This document shows positions 6,370-27,350 of a stretch of 64,000 nucleotides of DNA, in pieces. A program made the translations under genes and the position numbers. Position 1 is the first letter of the stretch; each line of letters starts with the position of its first letter. The notes beneath the pieces were generated by a model. The model ran no database searches and was not told the DNA's origin. It saw nothing but the letters and a program-made list of their open reading frames with translations. The stretch comes from an uncultured Chroococcidiopsis sp. (lineage in GTDB: Bacteria; Cyanobacteriota; Cyanobacteriia; Cyanobacteriales; Chroococcidiopsidaceae), in contig CAXTYC010000018.1 in the NCBI GenBank assembly GCA_964248365.1, positions 32,001 to 96,000 on the forward strand. Reading direction: 5' to 3'.

Positions 6370-7680
6370 ATGGATAGCAAACAACGACCTATTGGTATGG
6401 ATTTGTTCGCGGGCGCTGGTGGCATGACGCTTGGCTTTGAACAAGCTGGGTTTGACGTGCTTGCTGCTGTTGAGTTAGACCCAATTCATTGTGCCACCCA
6501 CGAATTCAACTTTCCGTTGTGGTCTATCTTGTGTAAGAGTGTCGTAGATACAACAGGTACAGAAATTAGAAACCGTTCTGCTATTGGAAACTCTGATATA
6601 GATGTTGTATTTGGGGGTTCACCTTGCCAGGGATTTTCGCTGATTGGCAGACGCGCTTTAGATGATCCCCGCAATGCTCTTGTATTTCACTTCTTGCGGC
6701 TAGTTTTAGAGCTACAACCTAAATACTTTGTATTTGAGAATGTACCAGGGCTGACAGTTGGTAAGCATCGGCAGTTTCTCTTAGAAATTATCGAAGAGTT
6801 TAACTCTAATGGCTATGAAGTAGAAACAAATTATAAAGTCCTTAATGCTGCCAATTACGGAGTACCGCAGGACAGAGCCAGATTATTTCTTCTAGGATGT
6901 CGCAAAGGTTTATCTCTACCTAAATATCCCCAACCAATTACTAAACCCACAAGAGATATTATTCACAAGGCATCTACATTGTCCGATTTGCCAGTTTGTC
7001 CTACAGTTTGGGATGCCATAGCTGACCTACCAGAGGTAGAATTATATCCCGAATTACTGACGAGAGATTGGGTAATAGCCGAGTACGGCAAACCTAGCAA
7101 TTACAGCAGTTCTTTGCGTGGTCTTTTACCTCATGAGGATGACAATGAGTATGAGCGGCTATTCGATCCAAGAATCTTAACCTCAAGCCTGCGAACAAAG
7201 CACAGCTTAGAATCTATTGCTAGATTTTCTGCCACAAATTCTGGGGCAACTGAGCCTATTAGCCGCTTTTATAAACTCGATCCTCAAGGCATTTGCAACA
7301 CTCTCAGAGCTGGAACAGCTAGTAACCGAGGCGCTTTTACCTCTCCTCGCCCAATTCATCCCACCCGTCCTCGATGTATTACTGTCCGCGAGGCAGCGCG
7401 ACTGCATTCATACCCAGACTGGTTTCGGTTTCATGTGACAAAGTGGCACGGTTTCCGGCAAATCGGAAATTCAGTACCACCCCTACTAGCAAAAGCAGTT
7501 GCAACAGAAATTATTCGCGCGCTGCGTGTAGTTCCAGTTAAGCCAAAACACAAGTTACCCCTAGCAAATGAGAAATTGCTTCAATTAAATATGTCGCAAG
7601 CGGCTCAAATTTATGGTGTTCCTGCAAACGTTATAGAGCCGAGAACAAGACAGACCGAAAAAAAGGTTAGTCATGGCTAA
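6370..7680 (+). CDS. DNA (cytosine-5) methyltransferase resembling CGATCG-specific M.XorII/M.Ssp6803I type
   Basis: DLFAGAGG, GSPCQGFS, ENV, QDRARLF and QIGNSVPP. TRD segment TLRAGT..RGAFTSPRPIHP. Specificity inferred from recalled similarity. Confidence 0.9.
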   Translation: MDSKQRPIGMDLFAGAGGMTLGFEQAGFDVLAAVELDPIHCATHEFNFPLWSILCKSVVDTTGTEIRNRSAIGNSDIDVVFGGSPCQGFSLIGRRALDDPRNALVFHFLRLVLELQPKYFVFENVPGLTVGKHRQFLLEIIEEFNSNGYEVETNYKVLNAANYGVPQDRARLFLLGCRKGLSLPKYPQPITKPTRDIIHKASTLSDLPVCPTVWDAIADLPEVELYPELLTRDWVIAEYGKPSNYSSSLRGLLPHEDDNEYERLFDPRILTSSLRTKHSLESIARFSATNSGATEPISRFYKLDPQGICNTLRAGTASNRGAFTSPRPIHPTRPRCITVREAARLHSYPDWFRFHVTKWHGFRQIGNSVPPLLAKAVATEIIRALRVVPVKPKHKLPLANEKLLQLNMSQAAQIYGVPANVIEPRTRQTEKKVSHG

Positions 7681-19406: not shown

Positions 19407-22124
19407 CTACTCTAGAGAAGCAAAGTCCTCATCTCTAAGAGAAATAGCATAATCTCTGGCGTGTTTAGCGTAAGGAAAAGGAAAAGGCAAGGAAGTTGTT
19501 CCGGCAAAATATGCCCAGCGGTTTCTGAGTCTTTCTAGGAATCTAATTAATATTATGTTGTTAAAACTCGAATGAATCACATCATATTCCAAAAGCGGCG
19601 GATTACCAGCAGGGTGTTTTCCGTTATCCAGACGAGATTGATTCACCCTTAAAAGGTCTTGTTCGGTGTTTAGCCTTTCTCTTAACCCCAGATAAATCTC
19701 TTGTTCGAGATTGTCGCAAACATTTTTCCAAGCATATATACCATAATGACGACTGCCTGGGTTTTTGCCTATAGGGTTCCAAGCAGGTGTTTCTAAAGTA
19801 TTGCCTTTGGTTAAACTACGAACAATATGCAAACGCTTTTGACGTTCTTGTAACTGAATATGCCTTCTGAGTTCGTTAGGAAACTCCCCACATTCTAAAT
19901 TGGAATTTTGCAACCACTTGAATGTAGAACGAGCATTTTGTCCATCCATCATAAACAGGACATGAGGCTTATTTTCATTGTTTATTGGGGTGGTTAAACA
20001 ATCGGTTAAACAGTTAGCTAGAAATTGGTTTAATAACCTTTGGTCACGTTGTTGTTCTTCAGTTTCTTCTGCATTTAAATCTTCTTCACCAGAATCTTCA
20101 TAAAACTGAGAATCCCAATTTTCTGTTAAAAGATGATTGTATATTTCCCAGGATGAAACCCACCTACTATTACCTCGGCTTTGCTGTCTCAGAGAAGGTG
20201 TTGTGAATTGTACTTCTCCCAAAAATGGATTGACTCTGACTACCACTACTACCAGAGATGGTAATCCTGACCAAGTCGTTATTGAAGTGCGACGTATAAC
20301 GAGGCAACAAGTTAACCACATTTGCTCAGGAATAGAATCTTCTTTTGTGATAAAATATTGTTCTGGTAAAACTCCAGCTTGTGAGAATAAGTCAGCAACA
20401 GAATTTCTAACACGAGATTCATCTGCTTGTTCTTCAGTTTTTTCTGTTAAAGGATGAATCCGCTGATTAACATACCCCATTTGCATTAAAGCAATTTTAG
20501 TTGCTTTATAGGGGTCAGCATTTTCTGAATAATAATCCGGTTCAAAAATTTCTAGGATGGCTCCACTCCGTCCCACAGGTTTTGGTAGAACTCTTTTGAA
20601 AAACTCAATTCTTTCTTTCGCTGCTTCTATTGCTCTTGCGTCTGGAATTTTATCTACATCTGCTAAACTTAAAGGTCTTATTAATTCCTCTCCACCTAGA
20701 GTCTGAATTTTTATCCGAAACAAATCTCCTAATTGGCTAGCATATTCAACTGTCCTCATAATTCCTAAATCAGTCATAGTTTCAGACACTTCTAACTCTC
20801 GATTTAATTGGAGAACAGTGCGTATTTCTTGAATTAAATAGTCTCTTGTCGTCGGATATATGTAAAGAATCAGAATTGTCTCTAATGGGAAGCGAGACAT
20901 AAATAGACTGCTAGTTGCTACAGAGGGACGGTGCATTACAACATTTGATTCTTCTCTATTTTGTCCAGAGCTAGGCTGATTTTTGTTAATTGGTATAGGT
21001 ACTATCTCGCCAGCACGTCTTAAAGGTAAATGTTGTGCAATATGAGCATTTAATGTTCCTATATCTTTGATGCTTACTCCTGGTTTGCAGAAATGTTTAC
21101 CTAAGCGGGAATGGTAGGCGATCGCTGTTATAATCCCTTCAGTATTACCATCCCAAATCCCTGGAAGTGACCTTGATGCAATTTCTACAGGATTGGGTAG
21201 ATAGTTTGTATTTTTAATTAGTTCCGACAATGCACGGTGAAGATGAGGAGTTTCTCTTCCACGATATAGTTTGATGGGGATAATACTTAAATCTTGTGTT
21301 TGGCTGTCGAGCCAGCGAAAGCGGTTAGAAACATAAACTGTAACACCACTACTATTTACTCTGTTAGGACTTTCATTCCCTTCAAGCCACAAAGGATATG
21401 TCAACCACCTTCTCACCCCAAGTCCGCAATAAATTAGAGGTGCTGTTCTTCCTTGCAAGGTACGCAACCTGATTTTGATAACAAAGGAAATATATTTAGG
21501 AAATCTACTATTGCTATCGCCTGTAGGTCTTGGAGGAAAAGATATTAGCTCGGCTCCCGATTCACAAGTAGCCACATGGTAAAAATTTAAGGGTGGTAAA
21601 TCGGTTGTAAACTGAATTTGTCGATTATCTTCAAACAGCCTAGCTAAATAATTTGGTATTGCTTGGTAGAGGATGTCATTAGGAGGTAAATTGCAATTGA
21701 AATCAAGAGGGACAGTTTGATAATTCCATTCAACGTATCTTAATCTGTCTAAAAAATCCTCTACACAGTCAGACCCAAGCGTTCGGGTAAACTCTTCTCT
21801 CAACCATTCTTTTACCAAAAGCCCTAAATTTTCCAAAGCTGCTGGCGTTGGCTGTTGTGTTGTGTAAAGCCAAGTTCCGCCATTCCTCCAACTATTGGGA
21901 ACAGTATGAAAAGTTGAGTTCCACGCAGCAACTACCAACGGGTTTAATGACCGCACTGGTGGAGACGAGTTTCTGTTTCGCATTCTGGCTAATTGCCATG
22001 CTATATCAACGTATGCTTGAGGAGGAGTAATTGAGTAAATTTCCTCCTGATTTATCGCTTCGGTAAGTTCCCAAGCTCCTAGCTCAATCGGCTTTGTTTG
22101 ATACAAGTTGCTTTTGTTTGTCAT
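19407..22124 (-). CDS. pPIWI-RE protein (N-terminal X domain, MID, RNase H-fold PIWI)
   Basis: About 905 aa. MID-like DPYKATKIALMQMGYVNQRI, DGQNAR...W and C-terminal LPFP.PYAK. Third gene after REase and helicase. Confidence 0.82.
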   Translation of the reverse strand: MTNKSNLYQTKPIELGAWELTEAINQEEIYSITPPQAYVDIAWQLARMRNRNSSPPVRSLNPLVVAAWNSTFHTVPNSWRNGGTWLYTTQQPTPAALENLGLLVKEWLREEFTRTLGSDCVEDFLDRLRYVEWNYQTVPLDFNCNLPPNDILYQAIPNYLARLFEDNRQIQFTTDLPPLNFYHVATCESGAELISFPPRPTGDSNSRFPKYISFVIKIRLRTLQGRTAPLIYCGLGVRRWLTYPLWLEGNESPNRVNSSGVTVYVSNRFRWLDSQTQDLSIIPIKLYRGRETPHLHRALSELIKNTNYLPNPVEIASRSLPGIWDGNTEGIITAIAYHSRLGKHFCKPGVSIKDIGTLNAHIAQHLPLRRAGEIVPIPINKNQPSSGQNREESNVVMHRPSVATSSLFMSRFPLETILILYIYPTTRDYLIQEIRTVLQLNRELEVSETMTDLGIMRTVEYASQLGDLFRIKIQTLGGEELIRPLSLADVDKIPDARAIEAAKERIEFFKRVLPKPVGRSGAILEIFEPDYYSENADPYKATKIALMQMGYVNQRIHPLTEKTEEQADESRVRNSVADLFSQAGVLPEQYFITKEDSIPEQMWLTCCLVIRRTSITTWSGLPSLVVVVVRVNPFLGEVQFTTPSLRQQSRGNSRWVSSWEIYNHLLTENWDSQFYEDSGEEDLNAEETEEQQRDQRLLNQFLANCLTDCLTTPINNENKPHVLFMMDGQNARSTFKWLQNSNLECGEFPNELRRHIQLQERQKRLHIVRSLTKGNTLETPAWNPIGKNPGSRHYGIYAWKNVCDNLEQEIYLGLRERLNTEQDLLRVNQSRLDNGKHPAGNPPLLEYDVIHSSFNNIILIRFLERLRNRWAYFAGTTSLPFPFPYAKHARDYAISLRDEDFASLE

Positions 22125-25100
22125 AGACAAGAAAGTCTGTTTCTTTGAGCAGGTGTAAAAATATTCCCCATAGTTCTCTAGCAATAGTCGCTTCCCAAGG
22201 AATATCAGAACTCATCCAAAATTCAAGAGTTTTAATAATAGCAACTAGGAGTGAAGTTGTTTCATCATCTTGCTTATTATCTGCGGATAGGGGAGCAAAG
22301 CTTTTATCGAGCCAATAAACATTTATTGGAACATTCCCCCTTACGCCTCTGCCAATAACTTGCCAGATAGAAACAACTTGATTAGCGCATAACGTCCATC
22401 GTTCTTTGGCAGTTAAGTCACTAAAATATACACTTTTACTAGTAAGCTTCATTAACTCAATCCATGCTGCACGGGCAAAATAATCTCCCTGCATCTGCAA
22501 TGTAGAATATTGGTGAATGAGTTGATTTGGCTCAAATTGTTGTAATGCCCAGCTATTGAGTCCCTGTACCACTTCAAACCAATCATGGGGAACTGGCATA
22601 GGTCGTTTGATAAATAAAATCGTACCAAAAGCAGCTTTTTTCTCATCATTGAGGGCATTGTGACTCCGTTCCATTGCGCCTAATACTCCTACAAGTAACC
22701 GAATAATTGATTCAGCTACTTTTTCAAATTCTCCTCGCTTCAAGCCAGGATACCAATGAACGCGATTATCTGCGTCACGACGCAATGGTTGAATAGCATT
22801 AATATCGCCTACAGGATGACGATAGCGCGATCGCAATTCTTGTATAATCCACTCAGCTTGTTCGTAGCTTCCGGTAACTCCGAGTATTCTTTCTCGGTCT
22901 GACCAAAGCGCTGGGTCATCCTGTGCTAATTCTTTCAGTTCTTCAAAGCGATCGTCAAGGAAATTTGGATACACTCCAGTAATAGCCTTTGCCATTTCTC
23001 GGTAAGCCATTTCAACTTTGTGTTGTGGAACACCGGAAATAGCGATGTATTTACCTTTTTCATTTACATTTAATTGAGGAGAAAAGACAAACTTTCCTTG
23101 CAAAATGGGGTCAGTTGATGACTTGGATTTGAGTAGTAAACTGGGACGAATAGGAATATGAAAAGCACTGCTTCCTGGTGCATAACTGGTTCCCGATACC
23201 AAAACTGTATGGGCGCTATCCCAGCCGTCAATTTCCAGCAACTTGTCAAAGTTCAACAACAAACTTTCCCCTACACCTAGATAGCGGAAGTATTTTAGAA
23301 TTCCACCTCCCTCTTTGTTGGGATAGTACAAGAAACCTAAAAGGTTTCCCACAGGAGATTCTGGAATCATTGCTAGATATTCTTGTGGCGGTCGAAGAAT
23401 TAATGGAAAGGCGTTATTCTGAAAGGCTTGTAAATCCAAAAGTTCCACCTGATTGTCCACCAACTTTTGCAGATGATGGCTTAAAATAGCTAGCAAAATT
23501 CCAAATCTAAATTTTTCAACTAATTCATCTAAGCTGTCATCTGGACAAGACAAGCCTTTTTTCGCAAGCCAATCTAGACACCAATATCGCAAATCATCTA
23601 AAGCTAAATCGCTCGTTCCTAGTAAAATTAATTCACGAGCAATGTTGGTAAGTTCATCTATTTTTTTCTATCCAAAGGATTAATGTTGCCAAGTCCATCT
23701 TTTTTTCGTTTATCCAAAGGATTATCTATAAATAATTTCAATTCACTCAATATTGCTCGAAAGGAATCTGTATCTGTTATGCCAGAGCAATCTAGCAGTT
23801 CTTGCACTATCCTTGAAAAAACACCGTAACTGTGAAAAGTTATTTTTCCTAGCCAGCCTACTAACAATGGATTCTTATTTAACTACCTGTATAGTGGAGG
23901 GATAGCTAATTCAATAATGTTGTAGCAATTAGCAAACTTTTCCCAAGATTTGTATTTAGTTTGAGGTCTATTTGAATTATTGATTTGGCTGAGTTCTATT
24001 CCAGTTTGATTAATTAACCCACCTTTTGCAATTAATTCAGCTTCTGGAGCAAACACATTATTTAATCTGCCCTTCATTAAGTCAGCTTCATCAACAAATA
24101 AAAACTCACATTCCCTAGCAACAAATTCTGCAAAGCGAATTTTATCAAGCGATACGCTTCTAGGAACTGGGGTATGAACAAAACTTTCTGGCGTTAATAC
24201 CCACACCAACCCGTTAGCAATGTCACGTTCTATTTGGTGTCGAGGACAAGTATAGTAATAAGGGCAGGTACTATCTACATTAGATCTCTTTGTGGCATTT
24301 GGTTCTTTTTGATAAAGCGCGTGACAAGGTTCTTCGCCAAAATTCCAAATGTCGGCAGATGCAACATGAGAAAGGAGAGGACATGATTCATTAAACCATT
24401 CCCTTACCGGATGTATTGCCCCCTGTTCTACATCACTTCCTGTGGTTTGAAGTATAGACTTATTAATTTTCTCTAAGTGTTCTACTCGGTTTTTACCTAG
24501 TATTGGTGCAGCAGGGATTTCTAAAAGATGTTTGAAGAGACTAGCTTTTCCGACTTGCGAGACTACATCACTAACTATTAATGCACAGCGTTTAGCATTT
24601 CTACCTCTAGAAACTAAATTAAAACTGACTACATCAATAAATGTTGACTTACCTACATTCAACAGCCCAACAATATGATTTAATCGATCTAAAGTCAAAA
24701 TAGTATCTTCAGAAAAATCATTTAAGGACTGGTTATAGACAGATAAAACAATATTTCTAAAGCGTTCATAGTAATTTAAATATATGTTGGAACGTGCTAG
24801 TCGGCAATCCATTTCTTTGGCACTTAATAAAAGTGACTTCAAGGAAAAAGTATAAGCCGGATTAGACTCACTTCGAGTTCTGACAAAGCGAACGATTGGA
24901 CTTCTGGGTAAATTTAATACACTTTGAGGAAGATTGATGACAACAGGGTCTTCTCCTTTCTTGATTTCAGCTAGCCATCGTCCTTCTTGTCTGGCTAGTT
25001 TTACCTTGTGTTGCTTAACTGCGGGAGATGTCTGCAAGACATAACGATAGACACGATGCCGATAATAACTATGTTGTCTGGAAGTGGGTATTTGTTCAGC

Positions 25101-25445
25101 ATCAGCTAAATCAAAAGCTTTGAGAACATCAGGGATGTCTTTAATGTATTCATCTAGATGATATTCCCAATCACTACCTTTGTATTCCAATAGATAAAAT
25201 CTAGCTATTTTACAAGTAAGCCATTTATTACCAATTGCTGGAAAACGATATCCTGAGATTAAATGTCTTACTTCTGTTGCGGGTTGTGTAGGTGCTACTT
25301 CCAAAAGCAGCGATAAACCTAACTCAACATGAACAATTAGCCTTGCTATTCTTCCTCTTTCTTCCTCTGCCCATCTTGCAACTACATCAGGATTTTGCTT
25401 TAATTCTTTTACTAAATTTTGATACCAATCGGTTGTATCTCTCAT
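22084..25445 (-). pseudogene. pPIWI-RE-associated SF2/DinG-like helicase, interrupted
   Basis: Walker A GLLNVGKS, VDEAD, SGTS and QVIGRGVRG across three ORFs. In-frame TAG at 23883-23885 and frameshift at the A7 run 23661-23667. Repaired length about 1120 aa. Confidence 0.85.
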
Positions 25446-26524
25446 TTTGTAATTATTTCCTTGGCTTGTTTGATGATTTCACCAATCGACCTTAGCTGTA
25501 ATCCCTTAAGGGCTTGAGGTTGAAATTTTTTTCTTTTACGAATAGCTGGAATATTTAAATCATTCTCATCAGGAAAGACTACAAAGGTTGCATCAACATC
25601 TGGTTGACATCTAACTTTTGATAATCTTTCTTCGCTGACATAAGACCAATCTTTTACATCAATTGCCCATCTTTGGGAATTAGGAAATTCTACAAGTAAA
25701 TCGTATCTATCAATTTGAGGATAAAGCGTGACAAGTGCGCCTAATTCAACCAATTTGTCTCGCAGGTATAATTCCCAAATGCCTGGAATAGTACCGTAGC
25801 GATGAACTCCTAGCGTTACAGCTACCCACTCGCTAATTTCTTCTGCGGGAATAACCCGAATATTCTTTAATTTTTTCTGACTTACAATTAATTCACAAGA
25901 TTTCTTGCGACAAATATATTCTCCTTCCCATAGCCGCTGGATATATCCACATCGGGGACACAGACGACACTCTGTTCCTCCAAATAAGTTTGCTACTGGT
26001 CGATAAAATCCCTCGTCGTCTAACTTGAAAAAATCTCGAACTTTTGCCAGTTCCTTTGTATCAAGCTTTTTCCGAAGTTGGGTAAGTGTCAAAACTGGAT
26101 GAGTACCAATTAACTCACGCGCTTTTCTGTAAGATTCGTCAAGCTGGTTTCTTTCGCAATACTCCTTGAGTTTCGCAAGGGTTAATTCTTGAACTTGGTG
26201 AATGCTGTCTTTACCAGATAATGCCCAATCTCTAGCAAAATCGGAAACCAACCCATATTCTAAAAGGGTTGCATTGTCAGGAATGCTTGGCACTTTGGCA
26301 GGTTCCCACCAAGATTTGATTGGTTTAGCTGCTTCTTCAAATAATTCTGGAAGTGTGGTAGGGACTTGTTTTTGAGATAATGCAGCAGCTGCACACATTC
26401 TCGACATTCCTATTCGCAAGGATTGAGGAATTTGAATACGTTTTTCTGGCGGTGTTTCCTCCCACTCAACTAACCCTGTTGCTAGATAGTGAACAGTGGT
26501 GTCATCTTTGGTTGATGCACTCAT
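25442..26524 (-). CDS. pPIWI-RE-associated restriction-endonuclease-fold protein with Zn ribbon
   Basis: CPRCG..C...C, PGIWEL.L and DRYDL..WAIDVKDW (PD-D/ExK). ATGA overlap with the helicase. Confidence 0.85.
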   Translation of the reverse strand: MSASTKDDTTVHYLATGLVEWEETPPEKRIQIPQSLRIGMSRMCAAAALSQKQVPTTLPELFEEAAKPIKSWWEPAKVPSIPDNATLLEYGLVSDFARDWALSGKDSIHQVQELTLAKLKEYCERNQLDESYRKARELIGTHPVLTLTQLRKKLDTKELAKVRDFFKLDDEGFYRPVANLFGGTECRLCPRCGYIQRLWEGEYICRKKSCELIVSQKKLKNIRVIPAEEISEWVAVTLGVHRYGTIPGIWELYLRDKLVELGALVTLYPQIDRYDLLVEFPNSQRWAIDVKDWSYVSEERLSKVRCQPDVDATFVVFPDENDLNIPAIRKRKKFQPQALKGLQLRSIGEIIKQAKEIITK

Positions 26525-26532
26525 ATAGCAAG

Positions 26533-26608
26533 GCTATCCGAATTTTGAAATTTAATTGCTTGGTGGGCAATGCTATCCGAATTGTGAAATTTAATTGCTT
26601 GGTAGGCA
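26533..26608. repeat. Tandem 37-bp direct repeat (39-bp period) upstream of the REase
   Basis: GCTATCCGAATT(T/G)TGAAATTTAATTGCTTGGT(G/A)GGCA at 26533 and 26572. Confidence 0.9.
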
Positions 26609-26748
26609 TGGGTGGCAAACAGTATATTGTATGTATCGAATATTACTCAAGCGCAAAAGACGGGGTGTGGATTTATATTTTCGAGACTGGAAGGTTGTGG
26701 CGATGCCTGCGGCAACGCTAAAAGCGTACTTACTAAAATTAAGCTATT

Positions 26749-27350
26749 CTATCTCTTAATATATTCGTCATACTTAAACTCATCTTTATCTAAAGAATAC
26801 TTAACCACTTCTGGCTCAATTTCTGGATGAATAAACTGTAGCTCAAATTTCAAACCTGCTTTTTCCATGACGCGGATAGATGCTTTGTTAGCGGATATTG
26901 CTGATGACACTACTCGCCACGTACCTAATTCACAAAAGCCTTTCAATATCAATGCGCGAGATGCTTCTGTAGCGTAGCCTTTACCCCAATCCCTCGGCGC
27001 AAACGATAACCTAGCTCAATATCGTTGTCATTATATAATCTTGAATTGACATTGAACTGACTATCTAATGCTGGTCTAAATTGAAACCAACCGATAAATT
27101 CATTACTCAGCTTTTCAATAGCTGCCCAAAATCCATAACCTTCATACTTTTGGTAGTAGCTAGTAAATTTGGGTAATGTTTTATTTATGATAGTTTCGTA
27201 ATCTGTATCTATGGGATTTCCACCCTTGATGATTCCTAAATTGACAAAACGAATTACATTGCGATCGCTGTCTAATTCAAATAAATTATCAGCATCATTT
27301 TCGGTAAACTGACGTAGAATTAATCTTGGTGTTACAAGAAACACTTTCAT
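26749..27350 (-). pseudogene. GNAT (RimJ/RimL) acetyltransferase, frameshifted at about 26990
   Basis: TPRLILRQF and ELGYRL, then WGKGYATEA and NKASIRVMEKAG in another frame. Confidence 0.85.

Follow-up and report, generated by a model that had tools for sequence, protein, structure and literature searches.

The three-gene pPIWI-RE system was defined by Burroughs, Iyer and Aravind in 2013 (PMC3702460), where the model put forward has a guide-loaded PIWI protein acting with a helicase on a hybrid or R-loop, and where the slicer residues are described as kept in just a subset of the family. Its Pfam set comprises PF13111/PF18157/PF13032/PF18154/PF18155/PF18156, and it corresponds to the type III prokaryotic Argonautes (pAgos) of PADLOC as classified in PMC11333966. 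One family member, PsPIWI-RE of Pseudomonas stutzeri (Huang et al. 2022, PMC10991935), is encoded next to a DinG gene, binds DNA or RNA guides, prefers RNA-DNA hybrids and was reported to perform guide-dependent cleavage. In this study, we analyzed a 64,000-nucleotide stretch of DNA (hereafter the window) from an uncultured Chroococcidiopsis sp. (contig CAXTYC010000018.1, positions 32,001 to 96,000), which carries a pPIWI-RE island on its minus strand at window positions 19407 to 26524. We consider it probable that this island, whose DinG-type helicase gene is broken twice, is inactive, and that its intact counterparts are guide-directed DNA-restriction machines in which a non-cutting sensor recruits a nuclease-carrying helicase.

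Both sequence and structure models supported the assignment of the locus to the pPIWI-RE family. All six Pfam models (pPIWI_RE_X, MID, RNaseH, Y, Z and REase) scored above their curated cut-offs, and PADLOC matched PprRE, PprDinG (in both helicase halves) and PprPIWI. These profile searches, together with a Foldseek comparison with Argonautes, had been proposed by an earlier sequence-only reading of the locus, and both gave positive results. That reading had also recognized the canonical operon order of restriction endonuclease (REase), DinG helicase and pPIWI-RE, which was borne out. It had further described three overlapping minus-strand genes; the order and the overlaps stood (4 nt between the REase stop and the helicase start, and 41 nt between the helicase end at 22084 and the PIWI start), but the helicase proved not to be a single gene. 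When compared with the system of PMC3702460, the window copy agrees in gene order, overlaps, the six domain models, the Fe-S cysteines, the conserved R and E, and the absence of a methylase. It differs in that the helicase is broken twice, an N-terminal helix-turn-helix (HTH) domain is lost, and the MID pocket is altered at four family-conserved sites. The window copy belongs to a known family, was recently broken, and is a derived variant lacking a likely autoregulatory module. The features of the locus are as follows.

25442..26524, minus strand: REase gene, intact, 360 aa, with Y domain, zinc ribbon and PD-(D/E)xK nuclease (PF18156 45.8 bits, PF18154 77.8 bits)
23883..25445, minus strand: DinG-type helicase, 5' part, 520 aa, with Z domain (PF18155 54.5 bits), PprDinG positions 11-398, Walker A, Fe-S cysteines C355/C374/C394/C400 and DEAD
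23883..23885, minus strand: premature TAG, a sense codon in relatives
23658..23882, minus strand: in-frame helicase continuation behind the TAG, ending at a second stop due to the frameshift
23649..23689 (approximate), no strand: 41 extra bases from an imperfect tandem duplication (42 + 41 nt), with a resulting frameshift
22084..23667, minus strand: helicase 3' part, with the second motor domain and motifs III-VI, out of frame, PprDinG positions 517-923
19407..22124, minus strand: pPIWI-RE gene, intact, 905 aa from ATG, with X, MID and RNase H-like domains
26528..26605, no strand: 39-nt tandem duplication, 92% alike, just 5' of the REase start and without the GAAAC operator described below
26621..26650, minus strand: promoter-like TTGAGT-18-TATACT, at chance level (4 found vs 3.7 expected)

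The helicase had been read from the sequence as one large superfamily 2 protein. Its motifs were all present, including Walker A (GKST at 265), DEAD (452), four Fe-S-type cysteines (C355, C374, C394 and C400, invariant in 14 aligned rows) and WQVIGRGVRG, but one intact reading frame was not. Two open reading frames (ORFs), 23883-25445 (520 aa) and 22084-23592 (502 aa), are parted by an in-frame TAG and a frameshift; behind the TAG, 74 in-frame codons are followed by the imperfect 42+41-nt tandem duplication, where the frame is lost, and the 3' part contains no ATG start within its first 270 nt. The helicases of full-length relatives measure 1092 and 1103 aa and are 86% and 75% identical to the window's first half, and the C-terminal half of the 1092-aa protein is 91% identical to the window's 3' part. 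The bases at both lesions were also examined in eight sequencing runs, which hold small shares of the genome only and were used solely for this, not for habitat or expression. A sense codon (A>G at 23885) was found in all contigs covering the site, which came from seven of the eight runs (X1-X4, X5, X6 and X15; X7 did not cover it), as well as in the relative G011. Moreover, every contig bridging the duplication was shorter there by 41 or 44 bases and so remained in frame, and the 41 extra bases were absent from G011, L031, L032 and L033. The two lesions, absent from every relative that covers the sites, are real and recent, and the window copy is most likely dead.

The ratio of nonsynonymous to synonymous substitution rates (dN/dS) against G011 was 0.19 for the REase, 0.34 and 0.19 for the two helicase halves, and 0.22 for PIWI; on the window's own branch it ranged from 0.15 to 0.33, with 0.15 for the helicase 3' half. 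Because such low values indicate selection over most of the branch, the break in the helicase appears recent. Two results weigh against the reading of a dead copy. The helicase showed no significant relaxation on the branch relative to the other two genes (45 nonsynonymous and 51 synonymous changes vs 67 and 97, p 0.37), and reads of the source genome were not found among the sequencing runs (best share 0.16), which makes an assembly error a formal possibility. If both lesions were such errors, the operon would be intact, and it may be added that one lesion lies at a homopolymer and that the adjoining GNAT gene is frameshifted too. Assembly errors do not, however, typically take the form of a C-to-T nonsense change or of a 41-nt duplication carrying six substitutions, and the completeness of the assembly is 99.97%. 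Control proteins matched 46 places in the genome, 7 of which were triad genes; of the other 39, 2 were broken and 1 had a stop upstream of the true start. A second triad in the same genome was moreover destroyed by deletion, and we regard assembly error as highly improbable.

Equally improbable is that the window copy is still active by recoding, either through read-through of the stop combined with -1 slippage at the A7 run or through a restart giving two complementary halves. The frameshifted stretch ends in A_AAA_AAA, a slip motif, with a TAG immediately behind it, and slipping by -1 at this point would lead into the correct frame; the low dN/dS of the 3' half and a frameshift in G011 only 15 nt away also speak for recoding. 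Yet two rare events would be required, a split would lose 58 in-frame residues and the linker with only TTG or GTG available for restarts, and motif V of the window helicase carries a private ERG-to-ERS change. Programmed recoding was rejected, since neither lesion is conserved and the nearby frameshift in G011 is a different 1-nt deletion, one among several. As a separate observation, two imperfect tandem duplications, of 39 nt (26528-26605) and 42 nt (23642-23724), occur in the same island, and each copy of the one in the helicase resembles a different allele found in relatives, a pattern suggestive of two alleles having recombined unequally.

The third gene had been described as encoding a protein of about 905 aa with MID and RNase H-like motifs, and both the length and the two domains were recovered. 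An AlphaFold model of this PIWI protein reached a predicted TM-score of 0.86 and a predicted local distance difference test score (pLDDT) of 82 with a 37-row alignment. When the model was used for structure searches, every listed row was an Argonaute or PIWI protein (Foldseek best E 1e-12), and comparison with TtAgo (4nca) gave a VIA Z of 16.6 and a root-mean-square deviation of 6.4 over 517 aligned residues. When the PIWI profile was searched against PDB sequences, no Argonaute was returned, only separin matches that were judged spurious. In a profile alignment with 16 cyanobacterial long pAgos, the first and last slicer Asp positions corresponded to L608 and K887 (probability 75% and 93%), and neither D nor E was among the six commonest residues at position 608 in the 37 rows. 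Because of these two substitutions, the window PIWI is predicted not to slice, and to sense rather than cut. Retention of D727, the likely second catalytic Asp, counts against this prediction, and the profile alignment is gapped there; for the Glu finger it gave no position. PsPIWI-RE slices via D525 and D610 (PMC10991935), whereas the window PIWI is without the first Asp as judged through the pAgo profile. R769 (35/37 rows) and E846 (36/37 rows) are kept, their assignment resting on conservation and on a spacing of 77, compared with 79 in PsPIWI-RE, and R771, invariant in the other 36 rows, is L in the window.

The copy had been called quite divergent, in agreement with our finding that 20 of the 77 family-conserved PIWI positions differ in it; 19 of these 20 also differ in G011 and L032, and by a second count other rows were nearly as deviant (16 vs 17). 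In the MID pocket, K539Y, R543K, G545A and R581S depart from the family and are common to G011 and L032, while D537, P538, Q554 and R571 are retained. As dN/dS is low and other members of the lineage have the same pocket changes, we read these as features of the lineage and not as decay. In the profile alignment, Y539 and K543 line up with Y-x3-K, the label of the guide pocket in canonical pAgos.

The zinc-ribbon PD-(D/E)xK nuclease recognized by the sequence-only reading was also confirmed, in that C189, C192, C205, C210, D275, D289 and K291 are invariant in 14 rows and the nuclease motif D275/D289-V-K291 is retained. When the window REase and the helicase fragment were subjected to complex prediction, the pair scored 0.80, compared with 0.00 for the best of three controls. 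Docking runs concurred in at least 94% of contacts, and the partners had a pLDDT of at least 84. In a benchmark, 116 of 157 solved pairs and 2 of 215 mismatched pairs attained this mark, counts that are only rough for alignments of our own. The predicted contacts join REase residues 18-63 (Y domain) and 175-201 (zinc-ribbon region) to helicase residues 321-404 (Fe-S region) and 156-179; these models predict that the REase docks on the Fe-S domain of the helicase through its Y domain and zinc ribbon. By sequence, neither protein had a solved structural relative beyond weak P-loop matches. A point against the docking is that conservation at the predicted interface does not exceed that elsewhere in the two proteins (0.56 vs 0.57; 0.54 vs 0.55).

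Most cyanobacterial REases of this family carry an 85-aa N-terminal extension for which LexA ranked first by profile and by model, and the HTH of distant members exceeded the Pfam LexA cut-off; the window REase is without this domain. Of 30 HTH-bearing cyanobacterial loci, 27 were preceded by GAAAC(A/T)T in 3-4 copies at spacings of 9, 11 and 9; of the remaining three, two had variant arrays by eye and one was cut by the contig end. None of the five HTH-less close loci had the operator. The repeats abut a -35 box (in 52 of the 56 distinct copies, TTGAC occupies positions 40-44), which is touched by a degenerate fourth repeat, and a weak CAnnnT -10-like site lies 18 nt beyond TTGAC. An exact scan of 185,579 genomes yielded 105 matches, where about 1-21 would be expected by chance from base composition. 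Sixty-six of them lay ~100 nt before the HTH (50 preceding HTH plus REase, and 16 preceding an HTH followed by a short or broken stretch, 327 nt being all that was covered for 14 of them), and the other 39 preceded neither HTH nor REase. Five of these 39 are cyanobacterial, and in one of the five a deletion has fused the site to the tail of a PIWI gene. The pattern was derived from related loci, the locus set and the scan set partly overlap, and kin are not independent. As the motif occurs hardly anywhere else in cyanobacteria, it is regarded as a dedicated site and not a regulon, and in the relatives the repeats are likely the control switch of the module's own operon. No match to the cyanobacterial LexA/SOS box pattern was found upstream. 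In locus L124, nearly the whole operon is deleted, and the operator and promoter remain, joined to the last PIWI codons.

Four distant HTH-bearing loci (L078, L100, L102 and L104) instead have inverted AAC-N4-GTT sites upstream of the REase, in three cases just behind a TTGAC(A/G)/TATACT promoter. These sites were found in 0 of 30 distant HTH-less loci, the only fair test, as the pattern came from the four HTH-bearing loci themselves. The GAAAC operator had no match in the window's genome, and the window, G011, L031, L032 and L033 are without both the LexA-like domain and the repeats. In a quick tree, the HTH-less loci formed one clade (support 99) with long branches, nested in HTH-bearing copies (97 with L036), which suggests that the window's lineage lost the domain and the repeats once. 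Both this joint loss and the half-site common to the two clades speak for the HTH as the protein that binds. On the other side, the cyanobacterial HTH scored below the Pfam LexA cut-off, its Foldseek E-values were 0.015 or worse, and the case for operator binding is a correlation within related genomes. By analogy, the HTH may repress the operon or, like C.PvuII, activate and then repress it. C-proteins of the C.PvuII type (PMC2647307) exert autogenous control of a nuclease operon via two operator sites upstream of the promoter, which resembles the operator of the relatives. The latter differs in that a likely LexA-type winged helix is fused to the nuclease, the half-sites are arranged as direct repeats, and a methylase is absent. 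In the main text of PMC3702460, autoregulation by the HTH is raised as a speculation, with no operator named. The literature searched contained no account of the operator; it did not extend to subscription papers or to the supplementary alignments and operon lists of PMC3702460.

A claim that HTH loss causes decay is not made here. Among whole-operon loci, 16 of 20 HTH-bearing and 0 of 3 HTH-less ones were intact (p 0.02), a count that keeps near-duplicates and omits partial contigs (L031 and L033, both broken, and L034, L036, L041-L043, L046, L049, L055, L058 and L059) as well as loci without a 5' end (L052, L057, L060, L062 and L063). We refrain from it because the loss was a single event, many HTH-bearing copies are also broken, dN/dS is low, and the lineage includes full-length helicases.

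Among the 61 genomes searched, 13 had a PIWI match; the 6 genomes of the same genus had none. The five closest loci adjoin five different host genes, four of them lying co-oriented downstream of the host gene, and all five are broken, each by different lesions. These distributional data bear on what intact triads do. A role in DNA replication or repair (at R-loops or stalled forks) rather than defence finds backing in a P. stutzeri knock-out, which filaments and is ~15-fold more sensitive to ciprofloxacin (PMC10991935), and in the action of DinG on R-loops (PMC3702460). The patchy spread, the five insertion sites in one small clade, the plasmid copies and the frequent decay fit defence cargo better, and we judge such a housekeeping role unlikely. 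The restriction reading has its own counterweights: in the literature searched, which did not extend to subscription papers, no phage or plasmid defence assay of any triad was found, and the ciprofloxacin sensitivity described in PMC10991935 is the sole in-vivo phenotype. The earlier suggestion of a putative defence system stands as to family identity and is overstated for the window copy with its twice-broken helicase. The accompanying remark that the system is largely untested still applies to the whole triad in the literature searched but not to the PIWI protein of P. stutzeri, for which guide-dependent cleavage is published (PMC10991935). Alternatively, an intact system might kill or arrest the cell by non-specific DNase activity after target recognition, rather than clear the invader as DdmDE does. 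The plan of EcBPAN, a non-slicing Argonaute with a nuclease partner (PMC13535254), is compatible with this, and a dedicated operator and frequent breakage suggest a costly system. As a directional Fe-S helicase predicted to carry a nuclease is closer to the translocate-and-cut plan of DdmDE (10.1101/2024.07.20.604412), we find cell killing doubtful, though less so than a replication or repair role.

The second triad in the window's genome is a remnant of another subfamily ruined by deletion (G000:C33:43374-47363, also L029:5372-9364). It retains the helicase 3' half and a PIWI gene without ~100 N-terminal residues, with no REase match there; it is 58% and 41% identical to L030 and ~30% like the window helicase. 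A genome_contigs scan with the PIWI protein as query gave no match. Two canonical Piwi-domain Argonaute matches were noted in the same genome (G000:C1:100311-101090 and C10:136107-136919, in open frames of 744 and 600 aa). Several other copies showed individual peculiarities. An open frame just upstream of the REase in L030 (14061-14300) looks by eye like a MerR/excisionase-type HTH; the helicase of the close relative L031 contains a ~790-bp insertion (6937-7650) that we read as IS1-like from its ORFs; and a 1322-aa protein (P0053) combines the helicase Z domain with all three PIWI-RE domains, possibly as a deletion fusion. A PLD-helicase gene follows the triad in L024 (15231-17687), and a methylase and helicase pair faces it in L251 (7580-12021).

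The earlier description of an AT-rich block amid housekeeping genes was also borne out in base composition. GC content was 38.7% in the island, compared with 44.3% and 44.2% in the flanks and 43.4% in the genome, and only 1.9% of 735 equal-sized genome blocks were as low. The flanking genes are ordinary cyanobacterial ones, with COP23, an M48 peptidase and DUF4383 on one side and a GNAT acetyltransferase and a hydrolase on the other. Flanking genes such as COP23, together with the named relatives, point to a cyanobacterial host. The GNAT gene directly upstream (26749-27350) is split by a frameshift and is intact, at 200 aa, in the same-genus genome G005. ORF, domain and repeat analysis found no integrase or long terminal repeat within or adjoining the island. 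An empty insertion site could not be demonstrated, the two flanks lying in G005 on separate contigs with different neighbours.

Taken together, these data suggest the following mechanism for an intact system. PIWI would bind a short guide through its MID pocket without slicing, on a substrate that, judging from the P. stutzeri data and DinG biology, may be an RNA-DNA hybrid or R-loop on invading DNA. It would then load the DinG helicase, which would carry the nuclease along the DNA, and the predicted seating of the REase Y domain and zinc ribbon on the Fe-S domain would tie cutting to helicase loading and movement. The same plan is seen in DdmDE of Vibrio cholerae, where a non-slicing Argonaute-like sensor recruits a DNA-cutting helicase plus nuclease; DdmD, however, is a nuclease-helicase fusion, whereas the window has two proteins and an Fe-S DinG-type helicase (10.1101/2024.07.20.604412). 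In the parent cyanobacterial clade, the LexA-like domain of the REase would act on the GAAAC(A/T)T repeats that adjoin the -35 box and thereby control the operon, and the window's lineage, having lost both, probably relies on host promoters. The 520-aa helicase fragment, having no second motor domain, should be unable to translocate, so that the system is likely off in the window. Possibly the fragment continues to hold the REase; this would account for the tolerance of an intact nuclease gene.

A broader view is put forward tentatively, at slightly less than even confidence. pPIWI-RE islands may be self-regulated, guide-programmed restriction machines, with the nuclease on the Fe-S domain and a LexA-type domain on a four-repeat -35 operator (inverted AAC-N4-GTT behind the -10 in a distant clade). 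The fast-evolving branch of the window would have dropped this switch and rebuilt its pocket toward Y-x3-K under purifying selection, and may load a different guide. Expressing the window locus unchanged would mean assaying a system that is most likely dead. The 27-35 bp candidate operator with its named binder addresses how a methylase-free nuclease operon may be restrained; together with the residue-level model of nuclease-helicase docking, it offers two handles on a system predicted since 2013, and both can be tested in intact copies of cultured cyanobacteria.

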